Shown in pieces: positions 2,522 through 26,380 of a stretch of 64,000 nt of DNA (position 1 is its first letter; the number at the start of each line of letters is the position of its first letter). The stretch is taken from positions 4,905-68,904 of the forward strand of contig JBBUGM010000006.1 of the NCBI GenBank assembly GCA_038077975.1. The letters run 5' to 3'. The position numbers and the translations under genes were made by a program. The stretch comes from Patescibacteria group bacterium. Its GTDB lineage: Bacteria; Patescibacteriota; Minisyncoccia; UBA6257; 2-01-FULL-56-20. The notes beneath the pieces are model-generated. The model worked only from the letters and a program-made list of their open reading frames with translations. It ran no database searches and was not told the DNA's origin.

Positions 2522-2691
2522 ACCGGCGATAATAAAACTTTCGTAGCCGACTTTATTTCAAAAGAGGTCGTGTTAACTTAAGCAATCAAAATTAAAAAAT
2601 CACGCTTAAACCCTTCTCTTTGAGGAAGGGGTGCGGATTTTTGTCGTGTTTTTGTTCGGGACGTAAAAATGAGCGAATTTTAAATTCCAAA

Positions 2692-5600: not shown

Positions 5601-8600
5601 GCAGTTCGGTGGCCAGAGATTCGGCGAAATGGAGGTTTGGGCGCTCGAGGGATACGGCGCTCGGCACACGCTCCAGGAGATGCTCACGATCAAGTCGGAC
5701 GACGTTTTAGGGCGCGCCGCCGCGTACGAATCGATCATCAGAGGCGAGACGATCAAAGAGCCGAACCTTCCGGCGTCGTTCAATGTTTTGGTGAACGAAT
5801 TAAAATCGCTTTGTTTCAACGTCAAGCCGCTTTACGCAGACGAAACGCAAAGAAGGGAGGCCTTTTCATCCCTGCAGATATCGATCGCGTCTCCCGAAGA
5901 CATCATGAAATGGTCTCACGGCGAAGTAGTGAAGCCGGAAACCATCAACTACCGGACACAGAGGCCGGAGAAGGACGGGCTTTTCTCCGAGAGGATCTTC
6001 GGTCCGACGAAGGACTACGAATGTTATTGCGGCAAATACAGGAGGGTTCGTTATAAGGGCGTCGTTTGCGACAAGTGCGGAGTCGAGGTGACCCGTGCCT
6101 CGGTTAGGCGCGACCGCATCGGCCACATTCAGCTTGCCGCGCCGGTGGGGCACATTTGGTTCCTCAAAAGCGTGCCGTCGCGCTTAAGTTTGACGCTCGA
6201 TGTTTCCGCTCCGAAGCTCGAAAGGGTGCTCTATTATTCCGCCTACATCGTCACAGAAGTCGATGAAACGGAAAGAAAAAGAGCGCTTGATGATCTCGAA
6301 CGGGAACTCAAAAGCCGCGTCAAGGAGATCGGCAAGAACCGCGGGGCGGAGTCGGAATTGAACGAAGCGGCGAAGGTAACCGAGAACTATCTCGAAAAAT
6401 TGCGTGTCGGTCAGGTGCTAACGGAGACGGAATATTTCAATCTTTCGAAGCGTTTCGGAAGCGTCTTTAAGGCGGGTAGCGGAGCAGAATCGGTGAGGCA
6501 CATTCTCGAAGGATTGGATATGCGGAAAGAAGTTCAGAAGATAGAGAAAGACCTGGAGGATGCGAAGGATCCACTCGCGCAGAGCAAGCTTTTGCGGCGC
6601 CTCAAAATGATGAAGTCGATGATCAAGAACCAGGCGCGGCCGGAATGGATGGTCATCACGACACTCCCGGTTCTTCCGCCCGACTTGCGGCCGATGGTGG
6701 CCTTGGACGGCGGAAGATACGCCACTTCCGACTTGAACGATCTCTACAGGCGCGTCATCAACCGTAACAACCGTTTGAAGCGGCTTTTGGAGATCAAAGC
6801 TCCGGACATTATCGTGCGCAACGAAAAAAGGATGCTACAGGAATCAGTGGATGCCTTGATAGACAACTCCGCTAGGTTCGGCACCCAGCAGATGAGCGCG
6901 CAAAGGCGGCCCCTGCGTTCCTTGGCCGACATGCTCAAAGGCAAGCAGGGCAGATTCAGGCAAAACCTTTTGGGTAAGCGCGTGGACTACTCCGGCCGCT
7001 CCGTTATCGTCGTTGGCCCGCGTCTTAAGATCGACGAATGCGGACTGCCGAAGACGATGGCCCTAGAACTTTTCCGTCCGTTCGTCTTGAGCGAGATTAT
7101 TAAACGTGGACTGGCCCACAACATTCGCGGAGCTGCAAGATTTATGGAAGAAGGCAGTGACGAAGTTTGGGAGATCTTGGAAGAAGTGATGAAAGGCAAG
7201 CGCGTGCTTTTGAACCGCGCGCCGACGCTTCACCGTTTGAGCGTGCAGGCATTCAAGCCGATTTTGATTGAGGGTCTCGCCATACAGGTTCCGCCCTTGG
7301 TTTGCGTTGCCTTCAATGCCGACTTCGACGGCGACCAAATGGCCGTGCATCTTCCGCTTTCACGTCAGGCGCAAAAAGAAAGCGAGGAGATAATGGCCGC
7401 AGGCAGGAATCTTTTGAAACCGGCTACCGGAGAGCTGATCACGACCCCGACACAGGACATGGTTTTGGGAATTTATTATCTGACACAGGCAGAAGATCCA
7501 ATTTCCGGGCAGAGAGCGAAGCGATTTGAAAGCATAGAATCGGCTCTTGTCGCCTATGAATTCGGATTTTTGGGCTTGCGCGAACTTGTGAATTTCCAAG
7601 GGATGGAGACGACCCTGGGGCGCATGATCTTTAATGAATCGTTGGCTGGGCGCGTTCCTTATCAAAACGAAGCTATCACCAAAAAGAAGCTGAGCAAGAT
7701 GATCGAAAGGATATTCATCGAGCGTGGCATCGAAGAAACCAGAGACACCTTAAACAGCGTGAAGTTGCTCGGTTTTGAAATGGCCAGCCGTTCCGGCATC
7801 ACTTGGTCGATGTCCGACCTTGTGGTACCGAAAGCCAAACCGGAAATTTTGGCGGCATCGGAAAAGCAAACGGCAGAAGTATACAGCCAGTTCGAAGAGG
7901 GGTTACTCACCGCGGCGGAGCGCCGGGCGAAAGTTATTAGTATTTGGGAAAAAGCTAAGACGGCAATTTCGAAAGTTATCGCCGTCGGCATCGACAAGAA
8001 CAATTCAATTTACCAGATCGTCGATTCCGGTTCGCGCGGCTCATGGTCTCAGCCGATCCAGATGATGGGCATGAGAGGCCTCGTGCAAAATCCTAAAGGC
8101 GAGATCATCGAACTTCCGATCAAGTCATCGCTTAAAGACGGCATGAGTGTTTTGGAATATTTCATTTCAACGCACGGCGCGAGAAAAGGCACTACGGACA
8201 CGGCTTTAAAAACTGCTCAAGCCGGATATCTTACCCGCCGCCTTGTCGACGTTTCCCAGGACCTCGTTGTCCGCGAAGCGGACTGCAAGACGAAAGACGG
8301 CATCGAGATAGTCCGCGCTGATGGCAAGGAATTCAACCAGTCGCTCGCGAGCCGCGTTTTCTCTCGCACGGCGCTCGAAGACATAAAATCAGGAAGAAAG
8401 ACGCTTATCAAAGCCGGCGAGACGATCAACAAGGCCGTCGCAGAAGAGATCGAAGCCGCAAAGATCGACTCCCTCAAGGTTCGATCGCCGATTTACTGCA
8501 AAACGATCTCGGGACTTTGCGCGAAGTGTTATGGCTTCGATCTCGGCGATGATCAGCCGGTGAGATTAGGCATGGCCGCGGGAGTTGTGGCCGCGCAATC

Positions 8601-9429
8601 GATCGGCGAACCTGGCACGCAGCTCACGATGCGTACTTTCCACACTGGCGGCATCGCCGGTATCGACATTACGCACGGCTTGCCGCGGGTGGAGGAGCTT
8701 TTCGAAGTGAGGCCGCCAAAAGGCAGGGCCATTCTTGCTCCGGCGGACGGGATTATTAAGGAAATAGAAGAGAGAGGGACGGCGAAGGCGGTGCAGTTCG
8801 TCCCGAACGAGGGCAAAAAGAAGAAGCCGCAGGAATTTTTGATCCCGCGCACGGCACTTTTGTTCGTTAAGGCGGGGGACGAAGTTAAGCGCGGCGATCA
8901 GCTTTCCGAAGGGCACTTGGACATCAAGGAACTTTTGGAGATCAAGGGTAAGCCGGAAGTTCAGCGCTACATTATCAACGAAGTGCAAAGGATCTATATG
9001 TCCGAAGGCGCGAGTATCAACAACAAGCATATCGAAATTATCGTGCGCCAAATGTTCTCGCGCGTGCGCATCAAGGATGGCGGCGATTCGTCGGAACTCG
9101 TGATGGGAGAGATCGTGGAAAAGGACAAAGTTTTGGAAGCGAACCGCGAACTGCGGAAGCAGGGCATGAAACAGGTTAAAGCTGAAGAAATATTACTCGG
9201 CATCACAAGGGTCGCGCTTTCCGCGGAAAGCTTCCTTTCAGCCGCTTCTTTCCAGGACACATCGCGCGTGCTCGTTAAAGCCGCGATCGAAGGCAGGATC
9301 GACAAATTGCGCGGCCTCAAAGAAAACGTCATTATCGGCCGCCTCATACCGGTTATCGGCAAGGAAGCCGCCGCAGAAGAAGCAGAGGCGCTTTTGCCAG
9401 GAGCGGAAGAAGTTGCAACCCAAGTGTAA
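2692..9429 (+). CDS. rpoBC: DNA-directed RNA polymerase beta-beta' fusion (RpoB-RpoC in one ORF)
   Basis: N-terminal half is RpoB. C-terminal half is RpoC (Zn finger [23 protein letters not shown], catalytic [11 protein letters not shown]). Junction near nt 5830-5880 has no stop or frameshift. Confidence 0.9.
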
Positions 9430-11283: not shown

Positions 11284-11709
11284 ATGGCGAAAAAGATTAA
11301 AACAGTTCTGAAATTACAGCTCCCTGCCGGGGCCGCAAATCCCGCGCCGCCCGTGGGCACTGCTTTGGGGCCTCATGGAGTTAACATCCAGGAGTTCTGC
11401 AAACAGTTCAACGAGAAGACCAAAGACATGACAGGGGACATTGTGCCGGCGGAAATTACGATCTTCGAAGACCGCAGTTTTAAGTTTATTTTAAAAACCC
11501 CTCCGGCCTCCGCGCTCCTCAAAAAAGCCGCCGGCGTTGAGAAAGGCTCCGGCAACCAGCTCAAGACCAAAGTCGGCAAAGTTACCCGTGCCGATATCCG
11601 CAAGATCGCCGAACGCAAAATGCCCGACTTGAACACGGATAATCTCCAAGCCGCCGAAAAAATAATTGCAGGGACGGCTCGGAACATGGGAATCGACGTA
11701 GTCGATTAG
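11284..11709 (+). CDS. rplK: 50S ribosomal protein L11
   Basis: Full-length L11 similarity ([16 protein letters not shown]...[13 protein letters not shown]...). Confidence 0.9.
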
Positions 11710-11721
11710 CCCATGTTCCGC

Positions 11722-11808
11722 TCGAAACCCCGTGTTGGAAGGCCGCCGCGAAGCGGCGGGAGTGGGAAACCAGAAGGTGTCCCAGACGGGGGTCGGGGTT
11801 TCGAGTAG
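11722..11808 (+). ncRNA. candidate structured RNA element downstream of rplK (three-way junction)
   Basis: 12-bp closing helix ctcgaaaccccg / cggggtttcgag encloses hairpins ccgccgc-gaa-gcggcgg and tggga...tccca; no poly-U tail. Confidence 0.3.
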
Positions 11809-11840
11809 GAAAGTGGGAATTGAAGTAGTAGATTGAAATT

Positions 11841-12098
11841 ATGTCCACTCGCGAATCATTACCAAGGCCAGAGGTTGACGCGGAAATTGCTCGCTTGAGG
11901 GCTTGGCTTGAAATTGCTAGAGACAGAGAGGAATACGACGAAAAACTAAGCGGATCATTTTCCCACTTACAACAGGAGCTGGAATCAACTTTGGGTAAAT
12001 TGCGTGGAGGAGATATTGCAAGTGCCGATCAGATATCCGATGAAAATTTAAAGAACCTAGCGGTAGCTTCCGAGCGACTGAAGAAGTTCCTCCCATAA
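11841..12098 (+). CDS. hypothetical protein
   Basis: 85-aa ORF, weak RBS. Confidence 0.35.
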   Translation: MSTRESLPRPEVDAEIARLRAWLEIARDREEYDEKLSGSFSHLQQELESTLGKLRGGDIASADQISDENLKNLAVASERLKKFLP

Positions 12099-12123
12099 GA
12101 GAAATAAAATCTAAATTAAAATA

Positions 12124-12156
12124 AAAGCCCCTCCGCTACGCGGAGGGGCTTTTTGA
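12124..12156. terminator. bidirectional intrinsic terminator
   Basis: aaaagcccctccgc-tacg-cggaggggcttttt between convergent genes. Confidence 0.6.
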
Positions 12157-12159
12157 TTT

Positions 12160-12831
12160 TTAGTTCTCAACAGGCAGAATGGGCAGAAGAACTCGTTTTA
12201 TATCTTCAAATACTTCGCTTTCCAGCTGATCACCGTTTATGACTACGGTATTATCGCGGAAGAGATCATGTTTCGCCAAGGCGAGGTAGTTCATTCTTAT
12301 CTTCTCCAGCTTTTGCTCTTGCTCGAAAAAATCGCTCTTCTTGATTTTTTTAAATCGCCTCTCAACCCTTGTCATCGCCTTATTTGCTGGCATATCTACG
12401 ACGATGTTCAGATGCGGCCATACAAAAAGCGGACCGATAACCTGTTTGTGCAGCTCTATGAAGTAATCAGCTGACTGATTGTAAAGCATGCCATACGCGA
12501 TGGTCGACATGCAGAATCTATCCATAAGGTACAGTCGTTCGCTGTCTTCTTGTAAAAATGGCCTGATGTAACAGAAGAAATCTTGGGCGCGGTCAATGAC
12601 ATATAGCCGCTGAAATTCGACAGGATTTTCTATCATCGGCACATCGTCTGAAAGCATGTTTCTGATCAATCTGCCAGATGGATTCGATTGATCGTTGGGC
12701 TCGAGAGATCCGGCAGTAAGATACCCTTGCTCTTTAAGCCATGCGAAGATTCGCAAAAACTGAGTGCTTTTCCCCGAGCCGTCGATTCCCTCGAAGGCGA
12801 TCAATTTTCCTTTCATGTCTAGCTCCGGCAT
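12160..12831 (-). CDS. tmk: thymidylate kinase-like dNMP kinase
   Basis: P-loop AFEGIDGSGKSTQ plus DRF...STIAYG motif; start taken at the ATG giving MPELD (TTG at 12876 and the ATG giving MKGK are also possible). Confidence 0.65.
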   Translation of the reverse strand: MPELDMKGKLIAFEGIDGSGKSTQFLRIFAWLKEQGYLTAGSLEPNDQSNPSGRLIRNMLSDDVPMIENPVEFQRLYVIDRAQDFFCYIRPFLQEDSERLYLMDRFCMSTIAYGMLYNQSADYFIELHKQVIGPLFVWPHLNIVVDMPANKAMTRVERRFKKIKKSDFFEQEQKLEKIRMNYLALAKHDLFRDNTVVINGDQLESEVFEDIKRVLLPILPVEN

Positions 12832-12897
12832 TGAGTTACTATCTGATATTGTCTGCCTACTCCAAAAACTAGTCAATAAAATTCTGTGGACAGTAAG

Positions 12898-14187
12898 CTA
12901 TGCGCTCGATTTCATGACAATGTCCAGCACCTCTTTTGCGGTCTTCGGGTCGCTAAGCTGTTTTCTATATTTCTCCGGCACGCAGATGCGGAGAGCGATG
13001 TACGATTGCGCGACCTCCTCCATGTTTTGGAAATGAGCCGGGTAACGTTCCTTAAGGGAAGAGATGCGGCCGTCCTTGTGGATACGCACGTCTTTTGCCT
13101 GGAATCGTCCCGGGTTGAAGACGGGGACGACGAGTACTGCCGCTTCCGGTATGCCGGCGATATTGGCGATTTTCTTCTCGAGCTCGCCGAGGCCGGCTTG
13201 GTTTTTTTGGTCCAGCGCAGAGGACTTCATAAGTTTTCGGACCTCATCATCCTTAAGGCCGAATGTCGCAATCGCCTTATCGTTCGCCGTGCCGAGGTTG
13301 GCGAATTTTTCCGGGCGGATGACTATCGCCTCGCGGAAAAGCTCGCGGCGTTTGAGCATGTCATAGAGTTCCTGGACGACGGGATTTTTTGAAAGGCGCA
13401 TGATGCCCAGGAGTTCCGAGTCGGTGAGAGTCGGCAGGTCTTTCTTTGTGATCTCGCCAGCCAAGAGCAGATAATAAACAGTTTTTTGGAACATACGCTG
13501 GGCGATGGCCGAGGTTTTCCTTAAGTAGACGTTTTTATACATTTTGAGGTAGAAATTTTGCGCCTCGATGGCATTGTCGACGACTTTCTCGTCAATCGCG
13601 AGCTCGCCGTCTATAAAGTATATGTGCTCACGCAGGTAATCTATGCCGCTCGGCCGCGAAAGAATGGTCGCGAGTCCGTCGCGTTCAAGGTAATCGAGTT
13701 TTTCCGTGCCGAGATTTTTGTCGTGCACAGCGAGATAGAGCGGATTTTCATGCCTGGCCATCGACTCCAGTAGTTCGTAGTTGATACCGGCCTCTTCGAT
13801 CGCGCCGCGCAGGCCCCTTATGATCTCAAGGCCCAAGGCGTCGTTGTCTTTGTCGCAGAGGTCCTCGACGACGTGTGAAAAAGCGGGGTGGCCGATGTCG
13901 TGGTAGAGAGCGTAGCCGGAAAGTGCGTCCGCCTCGTCTTCTTTTATAAATCCAAGTTCCAGCCAGCGGTCGGCAAGCTTGCGCGTGGCGTGGTAGGCGC
14001 CCAAGGAATGGGCCTTCCTTGTGTGCGTTGCCGAAGGGAATGTGAGGTAAGACATGCCGAGCTGGCGCTTGTCGCCAAGCGCCTGGAATTCTTGAGTTTC
14101 CATCATGGGCAAAACGGGGCGGATGTCTATAATGCCGTAGATCGGGTCGGCAACAACTTTAGGAGCGCTGATTTGCCTTTTCTTCAT
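12898..14187 (-). CDS. HD-domain dNTP triphosphohydrolase (dGTPase/SAMHD1-like)
   Basis: THTRKAHSLGAYH...YALYHDIGHPAFSH HD motifs, about 430 aa; directly upstream of tmk on the same strand. Confidence 0.75.
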   Translation of the reverse strand: MKKRQISAPKVVADPIYGIIDIRPVLPMMETQEFQALGDKRQLGMSYLTFPSATHTRKAHSLGAYHATRKLADRWLELGFIKEDEADALSGYALYHDIGHPAFSHVVEDLCDKDNDALGLEIIRGLRGAIEEAGINYELLESMARHENPLYLAVHDKNLGTEKLDYLERDGLATILSRPSGIDYLREHIYFIDGELAIDEKVVDNAIEAQNFYLKMYKNVYLRKTSAIAQRMFQKTVYYLLLAGEITKKDLPTLTDSELLGIMRLSKNPVVQELYDMLKRRELFREAIVIRPEKFANLGTANDKAIATFGLKDDEVRKLMKSSALDQKNQAGLGELEKKIANIAGIPEAAVLVVPVFNPGRFQAKDVRIHKDGRISSLKERYPAHFQNMEEVAQSYIALRICVPEKYRKQLSDPKTAKEVLDIVMKSSA

Positions 14188-15744: not shown

Positions 15745-16068
15745 ATGGCAAAAACAGCAGCTTCAAGCCCCATAACAGCGAAAGAAATAGTTGGCGTCAT
15801 ACTCCGCGACTACGGGCCGGTTGAAAAAGTTATTTTGTTTGGTTCGCGAGCAAGGGGGAATGCCGACGAATCAAGCGATCTCGACCTGATTGTCGTGAAG
15901 AATACCGACAAGCCGTTTGTACGACGATTGGTTGACGCCCCTTATTTTTCAATCCACTCCGACATATTTGTTTACACGCCCAAAGAATTTGAACAAATGC
16001 AAGAAAATGAGAACCCTTTTGTAATGAACGCGCTTGAGCACGGAGTTGTGTTGTATCCCGCGTCTTAA
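15745..16068 (+). CDS. minimal nucleotidyltransferase (MNT) antitoxin-like protein
   Basis: GSRARGNADESSDLDL pol-beta NTase motif, 107 aa. Confidence 0.75.
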   Translation: MAKTAASSPITAKEIVGVILRDYGPVEKVILFGSRARGNADESSDLDLIVVKNTDKPFVRRLVDAPYFSIHSDIFVYTPKEFEQMQENENPFVMNALEHGVVLYPAS

Positions 16069-16069
16069 C

Positions 16070-16480
16070 ATGAAAAATTCTTTTCTAAACGCTCGCCGCT
16101 GGCTGAGGCAGGCTGAATACGACTTTGAACAGGCAGAAAAATCATTTGACGACAAGTCGTACGCCTACGCCGCATTTTTCAGTGAGCAATCGGCACAAAA
16201 ATCACTAAAGGCAGCGCTTTTTAAGAGCGGGAAGCGGGCTATCACGATTCACTCGATTGCGGAACTGGCAAAAGAAGCCGCTGCTGTTGCGGACAAATCA
16301 TTTGCGGAACTTGTTGAAAGCGGCGCGCGGCTCGACAGGCACTACCTTGCCGCGCGTTACCCCGACGCTCTGCCCGAACCAGCCACCCCCTTCGAATCTT
16401 ATGTCGAACAAGACGCGGCAGAGGCGATAGCGTTTGCCCGCAAGATTCTCTCGGCCGCAAAGAAGTTTGTCGAGCGATAA
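16070..16480 (+). CDS. HEPN-domain protein (toxin partner of MNT)
   Basis: Immediately follows the MNT gene; HEPN-like helical protein of 136 aa from the internal ATG. Confidence 0.65.
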   Translation: MKNSFLNARRWLRQAEYDFEQAEKSFDDKSYAYAAFFSEQSAQKSLKAALFKSGKRAITIHSIAELAKEAAAVADKSFAELVESGARLDRHYLAARYPDALPEPATPFESYVEQDAAEAIAFARKILSAAKKFVER

Positions 16481-16709: not shown

Positions 16710-17045
16710 ATGGGCCTTCGATCTTGGTTGAGTAAGCACGTGGAAGAATTCCGAGTTGAACCCGAACCCGAGTGCGGACACGAAGTTCCATGTCTTTGCG
16801 ACAGCTATTTGCAGGGTCTCTCCTATGAGCAATTACTCAGATTGCGCGTAGGATACAGCATTGTTGTTCTTCCAGATCACTTTCAAAAGTCGCCGACATT
16901 GGCTGCGATTCCGATTATCATTGAGGGAGACGGCGCACCGGAAAATCCCCGAACTGAATTCAGGCGCGCCAAAAACGAAGCGAAATTGGCATGCGCGAAA
17001 ATAGACAGAGTTCTTCACGATAAGTTCAGAGTGATTTTCGTTTGA
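16710..17045 (+). CDS. hypothetical protein
   Basis: 111-aa ORF with GGAGGGA RBS. Confidence 0.4.
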   Translation: MGLRSWLSKHVEEFRVEPEPECGHEVPCLCDSYLQGLSYEQLLRLRVGYSIVVLPDHFQKSPTLAAIPIIIEGDGAPENPRTEFRRAKNEAKLACAKIDRVLHDKFRVIFV

Positions 17046-17168: not shown

Positions 17169-17876
17169 GTGAAATTCCCGCATACGATAATTGATGCAGG
17201 CAGGGAGCGCCTTCAATCCTTTGAGGAATCTCTGAAAAAGATTAATCTTGCCGCTAGGGCGTCGCCGGATCGCCATGTTAAAACAGGGACGACCGTTGTG
17301 GCCTTTGTTAGTAAAGACGGACAAGTCGGCGTTATCGCGTCTGACGGTCGCATTTCGATGGGGACAATTTCTTTTAAGGAGGAATACAGGAAAATTTTCT
17401 CCTGTCGTATCGGCTTCGTCGGTGTTGCCGGTTCGTTGACCATGGTTCAGTTGGTCATGCCGAACTACAGATTGGACCTGAATAACTTTTGCGACGGGAG
17501 AAATCGTCTTGTTACCGCATCTGGCGCGGTCCACCGGCTTTTCCAGTATTATTTGCGTGCCGCACAACAGGAGGAAGGACAACTTGAATTACTGCCGCTT
17601 TTTTGGGATTTTGAAGAGAAGCAGTGCCGACTCTACGCGCTAGCGGGAATGTGTCACGTGAGAATGAATCACGCATGTGCGATCGGAAGCGGTGTTGGAG
17701 TAAATGGGCTGGATATTGACCGGCAATATACTCCGACGAATTCCAAAAGCCGTCTTATCGCCAATGCGCGCAAGTACATCATAAGGGCGTCTGCTAAAGA
17801 CGGCGCCACAAATCGCCACATTTTCTATGGAATTATAGATAAAGGGAAATTTGACGAAAAGGAGGAGGTGCTCTGA
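17169..17876 (+). CDS. prcB: proteasome beta subunit (Ntn hydrolase) with propeptide
   Basis: TG|TTVVAFVSKDGQVGVIASDGRISMG matches the beta N-terminus Thr1-Thr2 through D17 and K33 context; AGGAGG RBS then GTG start. Confidence 0.7.
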   Translation: MKFPHTIIDAGRERLQSFEESLKKINLAARASPDRHVKTGTTVVAFVSKDGQVGVIASDGRISMGTISFKEEYRKIFSCRIGFVGVAGSLTMVQLVMPNYRLDLNNFCDGRNRLVTASGAVHRLFQYYLRAAQQEEGQLELLPLFWDFEEKQCRLYALAGMCHVRMNHACAIGSGVGVNGLDIDRQYTPTNSKSRLIANARKYIIRASAKDGATNRHIFYGIIDKGKFDEKEEVL

Positions 17877-18619
17877 TGACCGGACTAGGCAGAGTGAACT
17901 ACGGCGCGTTTCTTGCGGACAAGAGAGCAGAGATTCTCAAACATTTGGAAGGATCTTTGCCGACAGTGATTGTCCCGACGTCAAGGGGCATCTATGTTTT
18001 TGCCGAGGAAATTGCTAAGGTCCATTCCACGATTTTGATCGCAGGCGCCGGAAGAATGCTTCCGTCCATTGCCGATTGGTATCGTGCCCAGATGACAGAC
18101 ATGGTTCAGGGCTGGAGTCCGCGCGAACCGAAAGCAAGCGCCGATGTCAATCTTCTGCAGCAGATTTTTTATCCGAACCTGAGCGTAGTGCCTGATGTTT
18201 TTCTGGCGGACCTTGTTCTTGTAGAAATTGGCGCGCAGAGAAGCAGCGACTACATTGCCCGCGTTGACGCTTTTTGCGAAATGAGCGATTTGAGCGACGA
18301 GAAAGTCGTCATAGTAAGTTATAGGGTCAGAAAAGAAAATGGCCACAACGATGACGAGAGCGTCGACGAGCCCGATACCCCATTATCAATAGAGGCCAGA
18401 AAGCAAGCGGAGGATGCCGTTAAAGCCGAGCGCGAAAACGAACTTAGATCTGAATTTTTAGATCTAGGCATGGCTTTGCCGGATAACATGGAAGAACGGC
18501 AAGGGGGAAAGGCAGGCCTTCTCAAGGCCCTAGAGGAGCAATATCCCGGTAAAGCCGTTTTACTCAGGCGCGATTTTGTCAGAAAAAAGGAGTTTGACTG
18601 GGTTTTTGAACCCCTGTGA
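17876..18619 (+). CDS. prcA: proteasome alpha subunit
   Basis: Pattern like actinobacterial PrcA (…SLPTVIVPTSRGIYVFAEE…ILIAGAGR…); TGATG overlap with prcB, GGAGGAGG RBS. Confidence 0.65.
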   Translation: MTGLGRVNYGAFLADKRAEILKHLEGSLPTVIVPTSRGIYVFAEEIAKVHSTILIAGAGRMLPSIADWYRAQMTDMVQGWSPREPKASADVNLLQQIFYPNLSVVPDVFLADLVLVEIGAQRSSDYIARVDAFCEMSDLSDEKVVIVSYRVRKENGHNDDESVDEPDTPLSIEARKQAEDAVKAERENELRSEFLDLGMALPDNMEERQGGKAGLLKALEEQYPGKAVLLRRDFVRKKEFDWVFEPL

Positions 18620-18625
18620 TAGTTT

Positions 18626-18658
18626 GTGCGGGCCCTCTTTTCGGGCCCGTTCTTTTTT
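18626..18658 (+). terminator. intrinsic terminator after prcBA
   Basis: gcgggccc-tcttttc-gggcccg followed by ttcttttttg. Confidence 0.55.
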
Positions 18659-18706
18659 GTTAGTATTGTGTTAGATGTTTGAACGCTTTGGTTATGGGAG
18701 GATGTG

Positions 18707-20389
18707 ATGCCGAGAGAAAATCCCGAAAGACAGCCGGAACTTAGCGCCCAAGAACTTTTGAATCGGCTGCGAAACTGCGAAGATGCATATGCCCGATCCG
18801 CTAGCGCGAACGATAAATTGGCCGAGTTGATTTTTAAACTTGCCCCGTTTAGAGAGCCGCCATACAGCTTGGCAGTTTTCGTTTCTCTGTCCGATATAAA
18901 CGACGGCAGGGAAGAAGGACTAAGAAGATCGCTCGCGTCGCTGGGGGTCGATTCACCCACGGACGGTTTTTCGAAGTGCTATCTTTTGCTGAATAACGGC
19001 GCCATGGCGATCGGCACGGTTGAAGATGAATTAGGAAGAGGCCTCAAGTCGGGACAAGTGGTTCTTGTAAGCGGCAACATGGGGGTTGTGGCCGCGGTTC
19101 CGGACGAAGAAATCAGGCATCTTAAAAGTGTTACGGTAGCGACCATCGAGCAAGTTGTGGACGATTTTATCCTGATTGACGACGGCGCCGGATATCGAGG
19201 CGGAGGCGTTGTTCTTTCTCCTCGTCTCCGGGAAGAGTTGGGGCGTAAACCTCTTGAGAACGGCGACAAAGTTCTGCTTTTTGGGAAATGTATTTTGCGC
19301 GTGCTTGAGAGACAGGAAAAGCGTATAGGTACGCTCGAGAAGGTGACGTTTGAGGATATCGGCGGCCTGGAAAAACAGGCGCAGGAAATCCGCGACCTTT
19401 TGGGCCTCGATTTCTCCGAGGAGCTTAAGCTCAAAATGAACAGAGAGTTTCCGCGGGGGGCGGTCCTTTACGGACCTCCCGGAAACGGCAAGACCCTACT
19501 TGCCCAAGTTTTGGGCAATGAGCTCGGATTTTTCATCGAGCTTGTCAGCGGTCCGGAAATAGAGAGTATGTGGGTTGGCGAAGGGCCGAAAATGATGAGA
19601 GCGAAGTTCGGGAGAGCCTATAAGAACAGGCCGTCTCTTCTGGTTTTTGACGAAGCTGATGTTCTTTTCCCGGTCCGCGGCGCCTCCGTTAGTGAGGGAT
19701 ACAAAACAGATTACCTTGCGCAGTTCAACGTTCTTATGCAGGGAGTTGAGAGTACCGCAGGCGTTTTCGTGCTTTTGCTGACGAATCGAGTTGACCGCAT
19801 TGATCCGGCAGCCATTCGAGCTGGGCGCGCGGATAAGAAAATTTTCATACCGCGTCCCGGTATGGACGGAGCCAAAAAAATCTTCTCGATCCATCTTAGG
19901 CGCTATCCTTTTGCCGGCGCGGATGACGATAAAACGAAAAGAAATCTCATGCGCGGACTTGCAGAGAAAGTGATCGAGGCAGTTTTCAGACGCGGGTCGG
20001 ATACACATCTTTTTACGGCTTTTCGCGGAACGGACGAGACAAGGTATTACATCAGAGATTTCGTTTCCGGAGCGCTGTTCAAAAATATAGCGGACGAGAT
20101 TTCTTTGCGCGCGATGAAGCGCCTTAAAGAGGATGGCACGGAAGCAGATTCTCCGCAGTGCGGTATCACAGAGATAGATGCGGACGGCGTTGCTGCCCAG
20201 GCGATCAGTAATGAGATACCGCGCGACGACGATTCGAGAAATCAATGGCTTTTAACGAACGGATATAAACCGGCAGACACATTTAGAAACGGTCCGGCTC
20301 TCGAGGACGAGAAAGAGCTGGCAAATCGCAGAAAAGTTATGATCCGCAGGCATGCAGTGAGGAAAACAAAGAAAAAGAGGCCCTCGTAA
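18707..20389 (+). CDS. ARC/Mpa-like AAA+ ATPase (proteasome-associated)
   Basis: N-terminal coiled coil, Walker A GPPGNGKT, Walker B LLVFDEAD; basic C-terminus lacking the usual GQYL tail. Confidence 0.7.
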   Translation: MPRENPERQPELSAQELLNRLRNCEDAYARSASANDKLAELIFKLAPFREPPYSLAVFVSLSDINDGREEGLRRSLASLGVDSPTDGFSKCYLLLNNGAMAIGTVEDELGRGLKSGQVVLVSGNMGVVAAVPDEEIRHLKSVTVATIEQVVDDFILIDDGAGYRGGGVVLSPRLREELGRKPLENGDKVLLFGKCILRVLERQEKRIGTLEKVTFEDIGGLEKQAQEIRDLLGLDFSEELKLKMNREFPRGAVLYGPPGNGKTLLAQVLGNELGFFIELVSGPEIESMWVGEGPKMMRAKFGRAYKNRPSLLVFDEADVLFPVRGASVSEGYKTDYLAQFNVLMQGVESTAGVFVLLLTNRVDRIDPAAIRAGRADKKIFIPRPGMDGAKKIFSIHLRRYPFAGADDDKTKRNLMRGLAEKVIEAVFRRGSDTHLFTAFRGTDETRYYIRDFVSGALFKNIADEISLRAMKRLKEDGTEADSPQCGITEIDADGVAAQAISNEIPRDDDSRNQWLLTNGYKPADTFRNGPALEDEKELANRRKVMIRRHAVRKTKKKRPS

Positions 20390-20458
20390 TGGGGGCCTCC
20401 TTTTATTTGCGGCAATGCCTTATAATGCAGATAGCATATTGATTCTAAGGAGAATAAG

Positions 20459-22000
20459 ATGGCGCTGATCATGGGTTCGGAAACGGAATTTGGACTGACT
20501 TCGCGCGGCAGAGCTGGCATCCACGATTTTTTATTCGAAATCGACAAACAGCGCGGCCCGGCGTTTACTTCAAGAAAAAGCGGTGAAGTTGCCGAGGCGG
20601 CAAAAAAATTGAATTGGTGGGGCGAGGATCTGTCTTTTGACGAAACAGTTGATAAGCGTGCGGGATTTGCGGATGTCGCTAGGCGCCTTGGCATGAGTGG
20701 AGATTATTTAAGCAACGGAGCTCGTTTTTACAGAGATTGCGGCCACCTGGAGTATTCTACGCCTGAATGCCGTAATCCGTGGGAATTGGTCGCTTACGAA
20801 AAGGCCGGCGAGGAGATCGTGCGTTTATGCGTCGCTCGCGCCGCGGAACGCCTCGGTTCGAAAGCAGATTTACTCAAAAGAAATGCCGATTATCATGACA
20901 GTTCTTACGCGTGTCATGCCAACTATCTTCTAAGCAGAAAGCTGTTCAATCTTCTGGTCCCGAGTTTTGATGTTGAAACCTTGGGAGCATCGGACTTTTT
21001 GAGTCGCGAGCAGGCCATTTGGACCGCGCACAACATCAGTATGCAGATATTTGCTGGCGCAGGGAGGATTGTCCCCGGCATTGCATGGCCGGATTGCTTT
21101 ATTCCTTCGCAGCGGCAGAAATTCATTACCCACTTTGCCGCCCTAGATACAACTCATGCGCGCAGTATCATTAATACCCGCGATAGACCCTATGCCGATC
21201 CGTCTCGGTTTGCGAGATTGCATGTAATTTGCTGCGACAGCAACAGGGCTGATTGGTCGAATATCTTGAAGTACGGCACGTCGTCCCTGGTTTTGGGAGC
21301 GCTTGAGGACTTCGCGGCATTAGAGAACGAAAGTTACGGTTATCTTACGCCGGCAAACGCGGTGCAAAGCTTCAGAAATCTCAAAGATAGAAATAGCCAG
21401 ATTGAAACTTCTGCTGGAATAATTACCGCTCTCGATATGCAGAGAAAAATCCTTGAATTTGCGGCTAATTGGCACCAAAAGCACGGGAAGCCCGGGTATG
21501 AATGGGCGCCGCTCCTTTTTGCCATGTGGAAAGAAATTCTTGATCTACTTGAGAGAGATGACGAAAAGTTGCGTATGCTACTCGATCGATATATCAAACA
21601 GAGGGTTTTTGAAAAAGGGTTTGGCAGTTCAGATCAAAACTCCCGGACGTTAAAGTCGTTAGAGCACAACTATCATCTCGTAGATCACAACTCTCTTTTC
21701 GGCCGATTAGAGAAGGAAGGACACGTTGATGTTGTTGTCGGGAGCGACGACGTAGAAGCGGCTTTTGCTTCTCCGCCGCCCACAAGAGCCAGCCTTCGTT
21801 GCAGATTACTCCGGTTTTTAAAGAAAAGATTCGAAGATGGTCGCGGGGTTGTGTCTTGGCACTCTTTGGGCTTCACCGATGGTCGCAGGAAAGTTTTTAT
21901 TTCACTTCCTGACCCTGCGTCAAGCCGCGCACATGAAATTTCCGAAGAGAAAAGTTCGTTTTCAGAGAGATTATTTTCTCGCAAAAGGATCTGGGGTTAA
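20459..22000 (+). CDS. PafA/Dop-family protein (Pup ligase or depupylase), paralog 1
   Basis: GSETEFG N-terminus and NGARFYRDCGHLEYSTPEC signature of the PafA/Dop carboxylate-amine ligase fold. Confidence 0.75.
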   Translation: MALIMGSETEFGLTSRGRAGIHDFLFEIDKQRGPAFTSRKSGEVAEAAKKLNWWGEDLSFDETVDKRAGFADVARRLGMSGDYLSNGARFYRDCGHLEYSTPECRNPWELVAYEKAGEEIVRLCVARAAERLGSKADLLKRNADYHDSSYACHANYLLSRKLFNLLVPSFDVETLGASDFLSREQAIWTAHNISMQIFAGAGRIVPGIAWPDCFIPSQRQKFITHFAALDTTHARSIINTRDRPYADPSRFARLHVICCDSNRADWSNILKYGTSSLVLGALEDFAALENESYGYLTPANAVQSFRNLKDRNSQIETSAGIITALDMQRKILEFAANWHQKHGKPGYEWAPLLFAMWKEILDLLERDDEKLRMLLDRYIKQRVFEKGFGSSDQNSRTLKSLEHNYHLVDHNSLFGRLEKEGHVDVVVGSDDVEAAFASPPPTRASLRCRLLRFLKKRFEDGRGVVSWHSLGFTDGRRKVFISLPDPASSRAHEISEEKSSFSERLFSRKRIWG

Positions 22001-22012
22001 AGGAGGCGAACG

Positions 22013-23533
22013 ATGGTCAGATATTTTGGCACGGAAAGCGAACACAACGTTTCTTATCGTTCGAAGGAGGGAAAGATCCATAATTCCGCCAACGACGGAC
22101 TTCTGTCGCGCAACCCGCCCACTTTAGCCGATACGGAAATTTTACTGTCGGACATTAGCCCGGGAGAGCTTGGGCGTGACATCTTTTTTAACCCGAGCAA
22201 TATTTGGCTTGCGAACGGAGGCAGGCTATACAAAGACGGAGCTCTTACGGAATATGCCACTCCCGAATGCCAAAGCGCAAAGGAGTTGGTTCTTGCCGAG
22301 ATGGCCGGAGACGAAATTGTGGCGCGCGTAGTGAACAAATTAGCCGATGCCAAAGACGTCTACGCCCTTAAAAGAAGCGCTTCGAAAGAAATGGATTTAA
22401 CGCGCGGAGCCCATGAAAGCTACGCGATTCCGGAGAGTTTTCACAAGGAGCTGATAACGGATATGACGTTGAGCCACCGCATTTTCAAGTTTTTTTCGGC
22501 CAGCCGTCAAACTTTTGCCGGAGCCGGCCACCTTGGTTATCTCGGGAGAGACAAGGTGTCTCATCTTATGTTCTGGGTCAGTCCTAGAATATACTTTATC
22601 GACCTTGAGCTGAATACTGGCACAGTAAGGAACACCGGGCGAGCTTTGGTAAACTCCCGTATTAAACCGCTTGTGGCGGGAAACCTCGAGGGGATGCAGA
22701 GGTTACACTGCATAGTCGGCGACATGAATCGGTCTCCGTGGTCGATTTATCTCAAAATAGGAGTCACGGTTTTGGTCTTGGAGTTTCTTCAACTCGTTAG
22801 TTATGAAGCGTTGAATCGTCTTGGCGGAAAGATGAAGTCGGACGGCACGTTGATTCACCGAGCGAAGGCAGCCACGCTTTTCCTAAACGACAATGCCCTG
22901 AAAGACGACTTTGATTTTTTACTCGATATCCAATACCGCTTAAGCGATGCGGTTTGGGGCATGAGGGAAGAGATTTCCGAAAGACACAATGAATTTGAAG
23001 AGATTTTTTCTTTATGGCGGGAAGCGTTGGATGCCGCGGCCTCTGAAGGCGTTGCGCGCAAGAAATTTGAGAAGCGGCTCGATTGGCTGATCAAAAGGAA
23101 GTTTATTCGCGAACTCGTCGGCGGAGAGATTCCTGCTTTGGACAAAATAGAACGAGGCGATAAATTGCGCAAATTACTTTCTTTCGACTTTGCGTATCAC
23201 CGGGTTAACCACAAAGACCTGTATAAATTTCTGGTTAAGTCGGGCGCCATTGAAGAGAAATATGCGGAAAGCGAAGCTGCGCATTATCTCTCTAGCCCTC
23301 CGGGAGGAAGGGCGAAAAGCCGCGTGTTGATTGCGAGACGAGCGCAGGAGTTAGGCATAGTGAGAAATATCACCGATTTTGACTGGGCAAGAATAGGTTT
23401 TATCCGGGATCTTCTGCCGCAGGCCGATTACGACAGAAGAGTGCCGCCGAGACGAGAAATAGCGTTTGACGACAGAAGCCCGGAAACGTTAAAATTACAC
23501 TTAGAAGATATATACAACTGGATTCGAGGGTGA
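22013..23533 (+). CDS. PafA/Dop-family protein, paralog 2
   Basis: GTESEHN N-terminus and NGGRLYKDGALTEYATPEC; GGAGG RBS. Confidence 0.75.
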   Translation: MVRYFGTESEHNVSYRSKEGKIHNSANDGLLSRNPPTLADTEILLSDISPGELGRDIFFNPSNIWLANGGRLYKDGALTEYATPECQSAKELVLAEMAGDEIVARVVNKLADAKDVYALKRSASKEMDLTRGAHESYAIPESFHKELITDMTLSHRIFKFFSASRQTFAGAGHLGYLGRDKVSHLMFWVSPRIYFIDLELNTGTVRNTGRALVNSRIKPLVAGNLEGMQRLHCIVGDMNRSPWSIYLKIGVTVLVLEFLQLVSYEALNRLGGKMKSDGTLIHRAKAATLFLNDNALKDDFDFLLDIQYRLSDAVWGMREEISERHNEFEEIFSLWREALDAAASEGVARKKFEKRLDWLIKRKFIRELVGGEIPALDKIERGDKLRKLLSFDFAYHRVNHKDLYKFLVKSGAIEEKYAESEAAHYLSSPPGGRAKSRVLIARRAQELGIVRNITDFDWARIGFIRDLLPQADYDRRVPPRREIAFDDRSPETLKLHLEDIYNWIRG

Positions 23534-23536
23534 TCC

Positions 23537-23686
23537 ATGCCAGGTCAGAAACAGCGCGAAAGGCATAAACCCGAAGAAGAGGACAGTCAATTCCCAAAGC
23601 CGCCATCCCCGCTCGACGACATACTCAAAGATTTTGTTGAAGAGCAGGAAGAGGTTTTGGATCAGGAAGAAGACGACGGAGAATAA
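23537..23686 (+). CDS. Pup/UBact-like small acidic ubiquitin-like modifier candidate (49 aa, C-terminal Gly-Glu)
   Basis: Not in the ORF track (under 60 aa). Translates to MPGQKQRERHKPEEEDSQFPKPPSPLDDILKDFVEEQEEVLDQEEDDGE; starts 3 nt after the PafA/Dop paralog 2 stop and is followed by a terminator. Confidence 0.55.
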   Translation: MPGQKQRERHKPEEEDSQFPKPPSPLDDILKDFVEEQEEVLDQEEDDGE

Positions 23687-23690
23687 CGTG

Positions 23691-23722
23691 CCCCGTGCCA
23701 ATTTCGGCTCGGGGCTTTTTTA
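23691..23722 (+). terminator. intrinsic terminator after the Pup-like ORF
   Basis: gccccg...cggggc stem followed by ttttttatt. Confidence 0.5.
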
Positions 23723-23741: not shown

Positions 23742-23769
23742 TTGCCCTCTTAGCGATGGTGGCTATAAT
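23742..23769 (+). promoter_or_regulatory. sigma70-like promoter for lon
   Basis: TTGCCC-N16-TATAAT. Confidence 0.4.
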
Positions 23770-23803
23770 GGGATTAGACCATTGATATTCTGTGAGGTGG
23801 TTT

Positions 23804-26380
23804 ATGGACAGCGAAACTCCGCGGAATGGTGAAAACGGCGAAATTTCGCTGGTTTCCATGCCGAAGCGGCTGGTTGTTCTTCCTTTAAGCGGCCTTACGC
23901 CTTTTCCGATGGTGTCCACTATTCTCTCGTTTTCTCGCAATGAGTTTGTGGAAGAAATAAAGAAAGATTTGTTTTTCATCGCCACTGCTTTCGTGCGCGG
24001 TGATAGTATTGGGGTGCAAGGCGAAGAAATAGGCGTTCTTAGCGTCGTAAACAAAGACACAATCGTGACACAAGGAAATGCGCATATAGTCCCGGTGAAT
24101 TTTATCGCCAGGACGTTGATTACCGATGTGAAGACGCGGCTTGAAGTGAACAACCTTAAAATTTTTGAGTGCATCCCCGCGCTAAGCCCAGGCGAAAAGA
24201 TCTCTTCTGAAGCATGGGACGATGTTGAATTCCAAAAAAGAATGGCGACACTCAGAGATCTATTAACCGCTTTTTCGGGAGAAGTTTACACTTTATCGGG
24301 CATGCAGATGAATCGCTTGGGAAAGTTTGCCGCGGAAGATCGAACTAGGGCGTTCAAAAAGTTCATTTTGCGTAAGTCGCTAAGCGTTCTTGAAGGTGCC
24401 CTCCAGCGTCTTCGCGACGCGAACAGAGATGATTTTGGGACGTGCATCGACACAGCTGCGGCGCTCCTCGGAGGGCATCTTTCGGGGGGACTCGTCGATG
24501 ATATTACAAGTGACATATTTTGGGGAAAATCCCGGGACGTGTTAAGGGGTTTAGATGTCATGGAAAGGGCGGAGAGCTTTACGGAATTGCTTAATGAGGC
24601 AAGGGAGCTTGTGGCCGCCGCTGGAGAATTTTCACCAGACGATTCCACGGCGATAAACGAGGATTCTTTGCCAGAGAATGTTCGCGAAGAAATCAAAAAA
24701 CTTTTACCCTATGCGCAGGCTAATCCGCCAACCGCGGAGAGCGTTGTCGCGCAGAAACGCATCGAGTGGCTGCGCAATATTCCATGGACGAAGAGAAGCG
24801 AGGACAAAAAAGATTTTGTGAAGATCGAAGCCATTCTCGAAGAAGATCATTGCGGTTTAGAAGAGGTTAAAGAAAGGATCAGCGAATTCATTGCCGTAAG
24901 AAGATCGAAGCCGGACGCAAAGGGCTCCATCCTGTGCTTGGTTGGCCCTCCCGGCGTCGGAAAAACTTCGCTTGGAAAATCCGTCGCGAGAGCCATGGGA
25001 AGAAAATTCGTTCGGCTTTCGCTGGGCGGAATACACGATGAAGCCGAAATTCGCGGGCACAGGAGCACCTATGTGGGCGCCTTGCCTGGACAGATCATGC
25101 AGGCAATGCGTCGCGCCGGAACAAAGAACCCCGTCTTCATGCTGGACGAAATTGACAAGATCGGAAGCGACTTTCGAGGCGATCCGGCCTCTGCGCTTCT
25201 TGAAGTTCTTGACCCAGAACAAAATCATGCATTTCGAGACAATTATCTTGACCAACCCTTTGACCTTTCGGAAGTTTTCTTCATTCTTACGGCGAATACC
25301 GTGTTCACGATACCGCTCGCGCTTTTGAACAGGATGGAAGTTATCGAACTTCCGGCGTATACGGAAGAGGAGAAGATGGAAATCGCTTTTCGCCACATCA
25401 TTCCCAAAGTAACGAATGAATTCGGCATTAGCGAAGAAAATCTTCAAGCCAAAGAAATTCCGGTCTTTAGTGTTGAATTCGAAAAAAAAGCGGTTCAAAA
25501 TATAGTGAGTGTTTATACGCATGACGCCGGAATGCGCAATTCGGAGAGAGCTATTCAGCGTGTGCTAAGGAAGATTTTGAGAGTCGCCGAGAAAAAGCAA
25601 CTGTCGGAATTGACCAGTGATAATGTTGTCAAAGTCACGCCGGAGCTCCTGCTTTCTTTATTGGGTGAACCGAAGCAGCAAGAATGGCTTCCCGGACTAT
25701 TGGGCAAATTGCCGGTTGGAACTTCCGTTGGTATGTCGATCGACGGAACAGGACAGGGTGGAATTTTGGCAGTGGAAGTATCGCTATCCACGCTGGCATC
25801 TCCAAATGAACCCGTCAAGATCAAAAGAACCGGATCATTGCATCCTGTAATGAAGGAATCGATTGGTGTCGCCGTTGACCGCTTGAACAAAATCGGAGGC
25901 GTGCTCGAAGGAATGGCTAACGGTCTATTTGTTCGCATTCACGTGCCCGATGGCGCGATTCCTAAAGATGGCCCGTCGGCAGGCGTTGCTGAAATCGAGG
26001 CTCTTTACTCGGCGATTTTGAGTTTTAGGAGCGGCAAGTCCATTTCCGCCAAACCGTTTTTTGCGGCGACGGGAGAGATCACGCTCAATATGGATATCTG
26101 CGCGCCTATAGGCGGTGTTACCGCCAAACTCCTTGGGGCGCGACGTGCCGGTATTCGCGAAGCAGCGATTCCGTACGCGAATAGACGTGATATCAAGAAA
26201 GTTCCGGCGGGATGGCGCATCATTACGCCAGAAGACCGCGACGGCAAGTCGTGGAAAGAGCTTTCGCTCGAAGAAAAGCCCGAAGGAAGTTTTACCGTCT
26301 ATTGCGTAGAGAGGCCGGAAGACGTTTTGGAACTTGCTTTCCCGAACGACTATCCGCCTCGAAAGCAGGAAGAGAAATAA
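23804..26380 (+). CDS. lon: ATP-dependent Lon protease
   Basis: LON N-domain, AAA GPPGVGKTSLGKS, proteolytic DGPSAGVA Ser site. Confidence 0.9.
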   Translation: MDSETPRNGENGEISLVSMPKRLVVLPLSGLTPFPMVSTILSFSRNEFVEEIKKDLFFIATAFVRGDSIGVQGEEIGVLSVVNKDTIVTQGNAHIVPVNFIARTLITDVKTRLEVNNLKIFECIPALSPGEKISSEAWDDVEFQKRMATLRDLLTAFSGEVYTLSGMQMNRLGKFAAEDRTRAFKKFILRKSLSVLEGALQRLRDANRDDFGTCIDTAAALLGGHLSGGLVDDITSDIFWGKSRDVLRGLDVMERAESFTELLNEARELVAAAGEFSPDDSTAINEDSLPENVREEIKKLLPYAQANPPTAESVVAQKRIEWLRNIPWTKRSEDKKDFVKIEAILEEDHCGLEEVKERISEFIAVRRSKPDAKGSILCLVGPPGVGKTSLGKSVARAMGRKFVRLSLGGIHDEAEIRGHRSTYVGALPGQIMQAMRRAGTKNPVFMLDEIDKIGSDFRGDPASALLEVLDPEQNHAFRDNYLDQPFDLSEVFFILTANTVFTIPLALLNRMEVIELPAYTEEEKMEIAFRHIIPKVTNEFGISEENLQAKEIPVFSVEFEKKAVQNIVSVYTHDAGMRNSERAIQRVLRKILRVAEKKQLSELTSDNVVKVTPELLLSLLGEPKQQEWLPGLLGKLPVGTSVGMSIDGTGQGGILAVEVSLSTLASPNEPVKIKRTGSLHPVMKESIGVAVDRLNKIGGVLEGMANGLFVRIHVPDGAIPKDGPSAGVAEIEALYSAILSFRSGKSISAKPFFAATGEITLNMDICAPIGGVTAKLLGARRAGIREAAIPYANRRDIKKVPAGWRIITPEDRDGKSWKELSLEEKPEGSFTVYCVERPEDVLELAFPNDYPPRKQEEK

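Follow-up and report, generated by a model that had tools for sequence, protein, structure and literature searches.

The closest described relatives of the system reported here are the Pup-proteasome systems of Actinobacteria and Nitrospirae and the UBact systems, the latter reportedly introduced by Lehmann and co-workers in 2017. The UBact paper reportedly also lists some candidate phyla of the candidate phyla radiation (CPR) type. We compared gene orders in an automated pass over 80 loci of the Genome Taxonomy Database (GTDB), taken from among the matches listed (600 stretches), a sample in which closer relatives were possibly missed. Two patterns emerged. All full-set Pup-type loci sampled (Actinobacteria, Nitrospirae) had the order AAA-dop-Pup(...YVQKGG[EQ])-prcB-prcA-pafA, and UBact-type loci (Poribacteria, Armatimonadota, Bipolaricaulota) had the order AAA-lig-UBact(...RYRQR[TS]GE)-prcB-divergent prcA-lig. 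UBact systems were also sampled from some Nitrospirae. In the set of papers searched, which was queried for UBact systems, pupylation and proteasomes of Parcubacteria, Patescibacteria or the CPR at large, no description of a CPR proteasome locus was found. Here we analysed a 64,000-nucleotide (nt) stretch of a Patescibacteria group bacterium, referred to in whole as the window. An operon of six genes on its plus strand (17169–23722) is likely to encode a complete, working Pup/UBact-like system for protein tagging and proteasomal degradation on the chromosome of this CPR bacterium.

The initial annotation had described six adjacent plus-strand genes at this site. The open reading frame (ORF) listing of the window confirmed all six, arranged head to tail and interspersed with hairpins:

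17169–17876, plus strand: 20S proteasome beta subunit (PrcB-like), 235 amino acids (aa), assigned by PF00227
17876–18619, plus strand: divergent 20S alpha-like subunit, 247 aa, assigned by profile–profile comparison and an AlphaFold2 (AF2) model
18626–18650, plus strand: hairpin and T-run 3' of the alpha gene, terminator- or attenuator-like (−17.4 kcal/mol, z −4.4)
18707–20389 (start at 18704 or 18707), plus strand: Mpa/ARC-type AAA+ proteasomal ATPase, 560 aa, assigned by pup_AAA
20377–20399, plus strand: hairpin and T-run across the ATPase stop codon (−19.3 kcal/mol, z −3.0)
20459–22000, plus strand: Lig1, Pup-ligase-family enzyme 1 (Dop-like), 513 aa, assigned by PF03136
22013–23533, plus strand: Lig2, Pup-ligase-family enzyme 2, a divergent paralogue and presumed ligase, 506 aa, assigned by PF03136
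23537–23686, plus strand: acidic Pup/UBact-like tag candidate ending ...EEDDGE, 49 aa, assigned by position and C-terminus
23690–23722, plus strand: intrinsic-terminator-like hairpin and T-run at the operon end (−19.8 kcal/mol, z −3.4)

The beta and alpha genes overlap by 1 nt (ATGA), and gaps of 12 nt and 3 nt precede Lig2 and the small ORF, respectively. A GAGG Shine-Dalgarno sequence lies 7 nt 5' of the small ORF. The GTG start of the beta gene agreed with the public gene call, and the hairpin at the operon end explains why the initial annotation placed the end of the locus at 23722. In NCBI, the beta, alpha-like and tag proteins are named 'hypothetical protein', and only the ligases carry a family name ('PafA2 family'). 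This label was thus already known, as was the occurrence of Pup-ligase homologues outside Actinobacteria (PMC7947786). Of the six proteins, the ATPase alone matched PADLOC defence models, and these were generic AAA models (IetA, TRIP13).

The order of the window, prcB-prcA'-arc-lig1-lig2-tag, departed from both the Pup-type and the UBact-type orders sampled; in CPR loci the tag gene is always last and the ligases are adjacent. The claim that the order is unusual with respect to the actinobacterial layout was thereby borne out across the 80 GTDB loci. With the Pup-proteasome systems of Actinobacteria and Nitrospirae, the locus shares the six parts. The beta subunit has Thr1 behind a propeptide, the alpha subunit has an H0 helix, and the ATPase has an Mpa-like oligonucleotide/oligosaccharide-binding (OB) region and post-AAA region; of the two PF03136 enzymes, one is clearly Dop-like; and the tag candidate is small and disordered with C-terminal Gly-Glu, as in the Pup(E) of many actinobacteria. 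In contrast to these systems, its tag falls outside PF05639 and TIGR03687, its ATPase has no G[QH]YL, its alpha subunit is invisible to PF00227, its gene order is not arc-dop-pup-prcB-prcA-pafA, every equivalog cutoff is missed, and Lig1 and Lig2 form clades of their own. With UBact systems, it shares a host outside Actinobacteria, a tag that ends in G-E/Q, a pair of PF03136 enzymes, an ATPase that lacks GQYL and aligns almost end to end, and an alpha subunit diverged from the canonical one. It differs in that the window tag lacks the basic RYRQR[TS]GE end and falls outside PF20513 and NF033388, the order is not AAA-lig-UBact-prcB-prcA-lig, and the CPR alpha subunit is still more diverged. The initial designation as a Pup/UBact-type locus was supported, with the refinement that the tag matched neither the Pup nor the UBact hidden Markov models (HMMs).

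The sequence of the first gene product showed a predicted 20S proteasome beta subunit that retains its catalytic residues. It matched the Pfam family Proteasome (PF00227) with 46.8 bits (E 3.5e-12, cutoff 22.4), and among NCBIfam models 20S_bact_beta (30 bits) scored above archaeal beta and HslV (18 bits). A profile of CPR beta subunits aligned with actinobacterial PrcB at an hhalign probability of 98.8%. A 40-residue propeptide ends at the junction ...KTG/TTVVAF (Gly40/Thr41), in agreement with the initial description of a propeptide followed by Thr-Thr. In a multiple alignment, the catalytic Thr1, Asp (ASDGR), Lys (RKIF), GSG and D-x-x-T coincided with those of canonical PrcB; the first hairpin holds 2 inserted residues, and one loop is absent. 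The protein thus has the propeptide, Thr1 and the equivalents of Asp17, Lys33, Ser129 and Asp166 that mark a 20S beta subunit.

The second gene product is accepted here as a very divergent 20S alpha subunit, recognisable by profile–profile and structure comparison only. It had no Pfam or NCBIfam matches, even at E ≤ 10. An iterated proteasome HMM that gave canonical alpha subunits 212–262 bits and UBact-locus alpha subunits 21–38 bits missed it altogether. When 1.84 billion representatives were searched exhaustively with HMMER, its family had only 17 members. Word-indexed searches recovered 2 proteins from the single sequence and 6 from a 6-sequence query, and a metagenome scan with the 6-sequence alignment added two loci, one of which was a duplicate of L091. 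An alignment of 19 sequences was used for hhalign and AF2. This family profile matched bacterial PrcA with a probability of 95.9% (E 5.5e-9), including the N-terminal region with the H0 helix, versus 3.5% for PrcB; the match to the UBact-locus alpha subunit (94.6%) was reached only with the 19-sequence profile. The AF2 model had a predicted local distance difference test (pLDDT) score of 86.4 and a predicted TM-score of 0.83, compared with a pLDDT of 39 when 6 sequences were used. It contained a helix at residues 9–25 (H0-type) followed by the strand and helix order of the proteasome fold, and disorder was limited to an acidic insert at about residues 153–166. In a Foldseek comparison with the PDB, the top matches were chains of the Mycobacterium tuberculosis 20S particle and alpha chains of eukaryotes (such as 1ryp_F and 5a0q_G), with probability 1.0 and TM values of 0.57–0.68. 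The initial call of an alpha subunit overlapping the beta gene was therefore right about the overlap; the identity found no backing in Pfam or NCBIfam and gained it from hhalign and the model.

The third gene product was most similar to pup_AAA (TIGR03689) among NCBIfam models, with 183 bits over residues 33–491. It aligned at an hhalign probability of 100% both with Mpa-type ATPases, in a stretch reaching from the second OB region across the Mpa-specific post-AAA segment, and with UBact-locus ATPases, nearly over the full length (columns 33–563). Its C-terminus, ...RKTKKKRPS, has no GQYL/HbYX motif, as already noticed when it was first described as an ARC/Mpa-like ATPase. The sampled Pup-type ATPases all ended in G[QH]YL (14/14), and those of the UBact and Verrucomicrobia types ended in x-V-I or x-V-V.

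Both enzymes encoded at 20459–23533 belonged unambiguously to PF03136 (Lig1 287.8 bits, Lig2 176.6 bits), which upheld their assignment to the PafA/Dop family. The signatures ascribed to them were present exactly in Lig1 (GSETEFG and NGARFYRDCGHLEYSTPEC), and in Lig2 in degenerate form only (GTESEHN; NGGRLYKDGALTEYATPEC). Lig1 is Dop-like in sequence: its best PDB match was Dop (152 bits, PafA 122 bits), it has a 74-aa insert at the site of the Dop loop, a D-x-x-H spacing without the extra residue of PafA, and EYSTPEC (discriminating features taken from PMC7947786), and for the Lig1 proteins of the clade Dop-position HMMs outscored PafA-position HMMs by 18–78 bits. The best PDB match of Lig2 was PafA (88.5 bits), a marginal difference from Dop (81 bits). 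Its NGG[RK]...EYA[TS]PEC (NGGR...EYATPEC in the window) also occurs in PafA and in the second ligase of UBact loci. Lig1 and Lig2 formed long-branch clades of their own in an unrooted neighbour-joining tree. Their closest homologues were just 35–46% identical, and the best ligase identity among the matches listed from GTDB (80 loci) was 35%. The ligase and depupylase roles of the two paralogues can be only partly resolved by this analysis; Lig2 is presumed to be the ligase. Two further observations come from other loci. In locus L089, a third Pup-ligase paralogue (7073–8530) follows the tag gene and is nearest to the Lig2 of the same genome. In L004, a second Hainich assembly (0.2 µm fraction, coverage ~5), Lig2 was split into two ORFs of 128 and 380 aa (11555–13074), probably because of a low-coverage frameshift rather than as a pseudogene.

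The last ORF of the operon is acidic, 49 aa long and ends in Gly-Glu, as initially described. It was not un-called, however, since it is present in ENA/Logan gene sets and in NCBI (MEK9179944.1). All 11 CPR-type loci (11/11) were closed by an ORF of 46–64 aa, which started 3–20 nt past the preceding gene and in 10/11 ended in G-E or G-Q. Among all 40–110-aa ORFs of the loci sampled, such an ending had a background frequency of 1.2%, genuine Pup and UBact genes counted in. The C-termini of the CPR tags were EEGE, GGE, HGE, DDGE (the window) and EGQ; the terminal G-E/Q was kept and a double Gly was not universal. Their N-terminal half is rich in Pro, Lys and Glu, and they carry a short motif with a hydrophobic pattern, either P-[IL]-D-[FY]-x-x-[FY] or DD-[IL]-L-K. 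No second small ORF ending in G-E/Q was found in the operon span. The C-terminal residue of the L097 and L098 tags is Gln, and deamidation is thereby implied. The exception to the G-E/Q ending was L089 (GCA_964535895.1), in which the tag ORF (6795–6992) reads ...QEQKPGQ followed by RLNL, four residues beyond G-Q. This could represent a precursor in need of trimming or a sequencing artefact.

The Pup models PF05639 and TIGR03687 did not match the window tag and five relatives at E ≤ 10 (actinobacterial control: 75 and 70.5 bits), nor did the UBact models PF20513 and NF033388 match the CPR tags at that threshold (Poribacteria control: 67 and 76 bits); the positive controls came from loci L023 and L005. 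Single tags gave hhalign hints that were not significant (L055 to Pup 67%, L097 to Pup 37%, L098 to UBact 11%). With silent HMMs and non-significant hhalign results in both cases, we rejected the propositions that the tag is a Pup or that it is a UBact, and retained those that it works like Pup or like UBact. By every contextual criterion the candidate appears Pup/UBact-like, yet it lies in neither family as now modelled and, as far as sequence can tell, represents a third type.

The closest relatives of the locus (L085–L087, L089–L091, L095 and L096) had the arrangement [L11-tmk-(HD)-gatB]-prcB-alpha'-AAA-lig1-lig2-small ORF-[miaA-thrS]. This housekeeping context was common to at least 8 independently assembled relatives, at 35–46% ligase identity. 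The same flanks and order in the relatives indicate that the operon is native and vertically kept in the clade, and not a contaminant. Three more distant CPR variants were found. Niyogibacteria locus L055 had the order arc-lig-lig-prcB-prcA-tag, and its alpha subunit matched the UBact-type alpha subunit at 95.8%. Locus L097 (873–5832) had the order arc-lig-prcB-prcA-tag, with one ligase gene in the assembled part, an alpha subunit that was still PF00227-positive and a tag ending in EGQ. Locus L098 (594–7407) had the gene order of the window, a beta subunit just over the PF00227 threshold (23.8 bits) and likewise a tag ending in EGQ. All three share with the window the set of components and the last position of the tag, which in them ends in EEGE or EGQ. 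L055 and L097 differ from it in that arc and the ligase(s) lie ahead of prcBA and the alpha subunit is less diverged.

Based on these results and by analogy with the Pup-proteasome system of Actinobacteria, we propose the following mechanism. A 49-aa acidic, largely disordered peptide would be made with a ready C-terminal Glu; as this residue is already encoded, no deamidation would be needed. A PF03136 enzyme, most likely Lig2, would phosphorylate the gamma-carboxylate of this Glu in an ATP-dependent manner and transfer the tag to substrate lysines, and the Dop-like Lig1 would take the tag off again. An Mpa/ARC-like AAA+ hexamer would bind the tag, presumably via its N-terminal helical region, and unfold the tagged protein. 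We infer that this ATPase docks onto the 20S particle in spite of having no HbYX motif. The unfolded substrate would then be fed into the particle, formed by the Thr1 beta and the divergent alpha subunits and by analogy presumably of alpha7-beta7-beta7-alpha7 stoichiometry, and be degraded.

Several observations weigh against a complete system of this kind. The proteins scored below the equivalog cutoffs of their families: the beta subunit with 30 versus 192 bits (20S_bact_beta), the ATPase with 183 versus 505 bits (pup_AAA), and Lig1 and Lig2 with 217 versus 492 and 134 versus 551 bits (Dop/PafA, TIGR03688/TIGR03686). In Lig2, the His of H-x-EY is lost in most clade members (Leu in the window), and neither the neighbour-joining tree nor an alpha-loop comparison nor the Dop/PafA HMM contrast, which was ambiguous, placed this enzyme with PafA. 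The five CPR ATPases compared all lacked GQYL and had no common C-terminal motif. The hairpin and T-run sites 3' of the alpha gene and at the ATPase end could uncouple expression. The putative role of the tag was deduced from its position, size, composition and C-terminal G-E/Q, and the CPR tag alignment matched Pup at 0.6–0.7% and UBact at 0.1% in hhalign; Pup and UBact were likewise undetectable to each other (0.8%).

The results for the tag would agree with a different reading, in which the small ORF, instead of being conjugated to proteins as a modifier, would serve for example as assembly factor, regulator or leader-like peptide. The proteasome, ATPase and ligases would then be real, and the ligases would act with another tag or substrate. 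A short, low-complexity, acidic sequence that has no HMM match and no significant hhalign match to Pup or UBact, and that in L089 runs beyond G-Q, is consistent with this. We nevertheless regard it as unlikely, since the ORF is the last gene and ends in G-E/Q in 10/11 diverged loci, far from the background frequency, has no rival in the operon span, and fits Pup and UBact in size and disorder-prone composition.

It is also unlikely that the tagging is regulatory or otherwise non-degradative, or that the tail-less ATPase acts apart from the 20S particle, which would then degrade proteins independently of the tag. The terminator-like hairpins that part prcBA, arc and lig-lig-tag, as well as the variable ATPase C-termini, could be explained in this way, and corynebacteria use pupylation together with ARC but are not known to have a proteasome. 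On the other hand, the six genes without exception lay together and in one orientation in all relatives, across three gene orders, and the sampled UBact-type ATPases are also without GQYL.

That the two 'proteasome' genes form another Ntn-hydrolase assembly of the HslV, Anbu or BPH kind, instead of an alpha/beta 20S particle, is highly improbable. The low scores of the beta subunit, its weak HslV match and an alpha subunit beyond recognition by HMMs would be in line with it. However, the HslV models gave 18 and 15 bits versus cutoffs of 137 and 158, so that this alternative, raised in the initial annotation for 17169–18619, lost at 17169–17876 to the 20S models, which were the top beta matches and were joined by the hhalign match to PrcB. 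The partner protein matched alpha and not beta subunits and has the alpha-specific N-terminal helix, and the adjoining ATPase is of the Mpa type, not HslU. Anbu and BPH are homo-oligomers from one gene, and the single-subunit arrangement of HslVU, Anbu and BPH was not seen here.

Finally, Pup-proteasome systems are typical of Actinobacteria and Nitrospirae, but contamination by an actinobacterial contig, or very recent acquisition from either group, is refuted for practical purposes by the top identity of 35% among the matches listed, by a gene order and tag unlike any Pup-type locus, by flanking CPR housekeeping genes whose order recurs in relatives that were assembled independently, by an even GC content across the window, and by the binning in NCBI of the contig as Patescibacteria. 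The contig (103,871 bp) originated from the Hainich groundwater aquifer (well H43, 0.1 µm fraction), the same locus was also assembled independently from other samples, and identical proteins sit in a metagenome-assembled genome named "Patescibacteria group bacterium" in NCBI, which settled the check for Actinobacteria contamination called for at the outset.

A complete tagging and degradation system thus remains the reading we favour. An extension of it, which we put forward tentatively and at somewhat less than even chances, is that the tags of Patescibacteria make up a third prokaryotic ubiquitin-like family beside Pup and UBact. Such a family would be defined by size, disorder, an acidic tail and C-terminal G-E/Q, and would have co-evolved with its own Dop-like/ligase pair, an Mpa-type ATPase without HbYX and an alpha subunit that HMMs do not recognise.

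Neighbouring genes and other loci gave additional observations. A Lon gene (23792–26380, plus strand) lies downstream of the operon and outside the conserved unit, with its own promoter-like site (23742–23769, plus strand) downstream of the operon terminator. It is located between tag and miaA in the window genome only, as miaA directly follows the tag in the relatives, and its first ~290 residues did not match a Lon N-domain model. Upstream, between gatB and the operon, a nucleotidyltransferase (NTP_transf_2; 15745–16068) and a HEPN protein (16070–16480), both on the plus strand, form a pair that resembles a toxin-antitoxin or defence pair; the first protein matched the PADLOC candidate PDC-S09. 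The pair is missing at that position in L087, L090 and L091. Just 5' of the beta gene, an ORF of 111 aa (16710–17045, plus strand) had no Pfam, NCBIfam or PADLOC match, and L087 and L090 have an unannotated gene of 251–252 aa at this position, of unrelated length. In L091/L092, gatB (1433–3346, 637 aa) contains a PDDEXK_3 nuclease domain inside GatB_N, which may be a mobile insertion. Elsewhere in the window, an ORF of 2269 aa (2620–9429, plus strand), in which all RNA polymerase beta domains (Rpb2_1-7) are followed by those of beta' (Rpb1_1-5), is an rpoB-rpoC fusion; the relative L095 also has one (2240 aa). Two ORFs of 912 aa (45661–48399) and 905 aa (50107–52824) on the plus strand had no Pfam match at E ≤ 1e-5, and an ORF of 730 aa is antisense to the former. 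Among the GTDB loci, many from Verrucomicrobiota/Chthoniobacterales (L007, L009, L021, L027 and others) had an AAA gene and a single PF03136 gene, and neither proteasome genes nor a small ORF ending in G-E/Q lay within about 8 kb; the rest of that system, if present, would be elsewhere.

The new elements are a tag family that is not covered by models, an alpha subunit beyond the reach of HMMs, a rearranged operon and a tail-less ATPase in a CPR host. The clade is rare, with 17 alpha-like representatives among 1.84 billion. Because the tag and the alpha subunit diverge beyond Pfam and NCBIfam, surveys based on Pup, UBact or PF00227 undercount such systems, and if the third tag family is real, more tags are likely hidden among 'hypothetical' small ORFs. 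The ATPase without HbYX and the Lig2 without the His are natural experiments on what such machines need. Should the Lig1 and Lig2 clades branch outside the split between Dop and PafA, which the unrooted tree allows, this would bear on the origin and timing of Pup-like tagging. For the organisms themselves, the locus would bring CPR bacteria, ultra-small and with reduced genomes, into the range of Pup/UBact-type tagging combined with a full 20S proteasome; in a genome of very small size, regulated proteolysis would take up about 6.5 kb, besides Lon.

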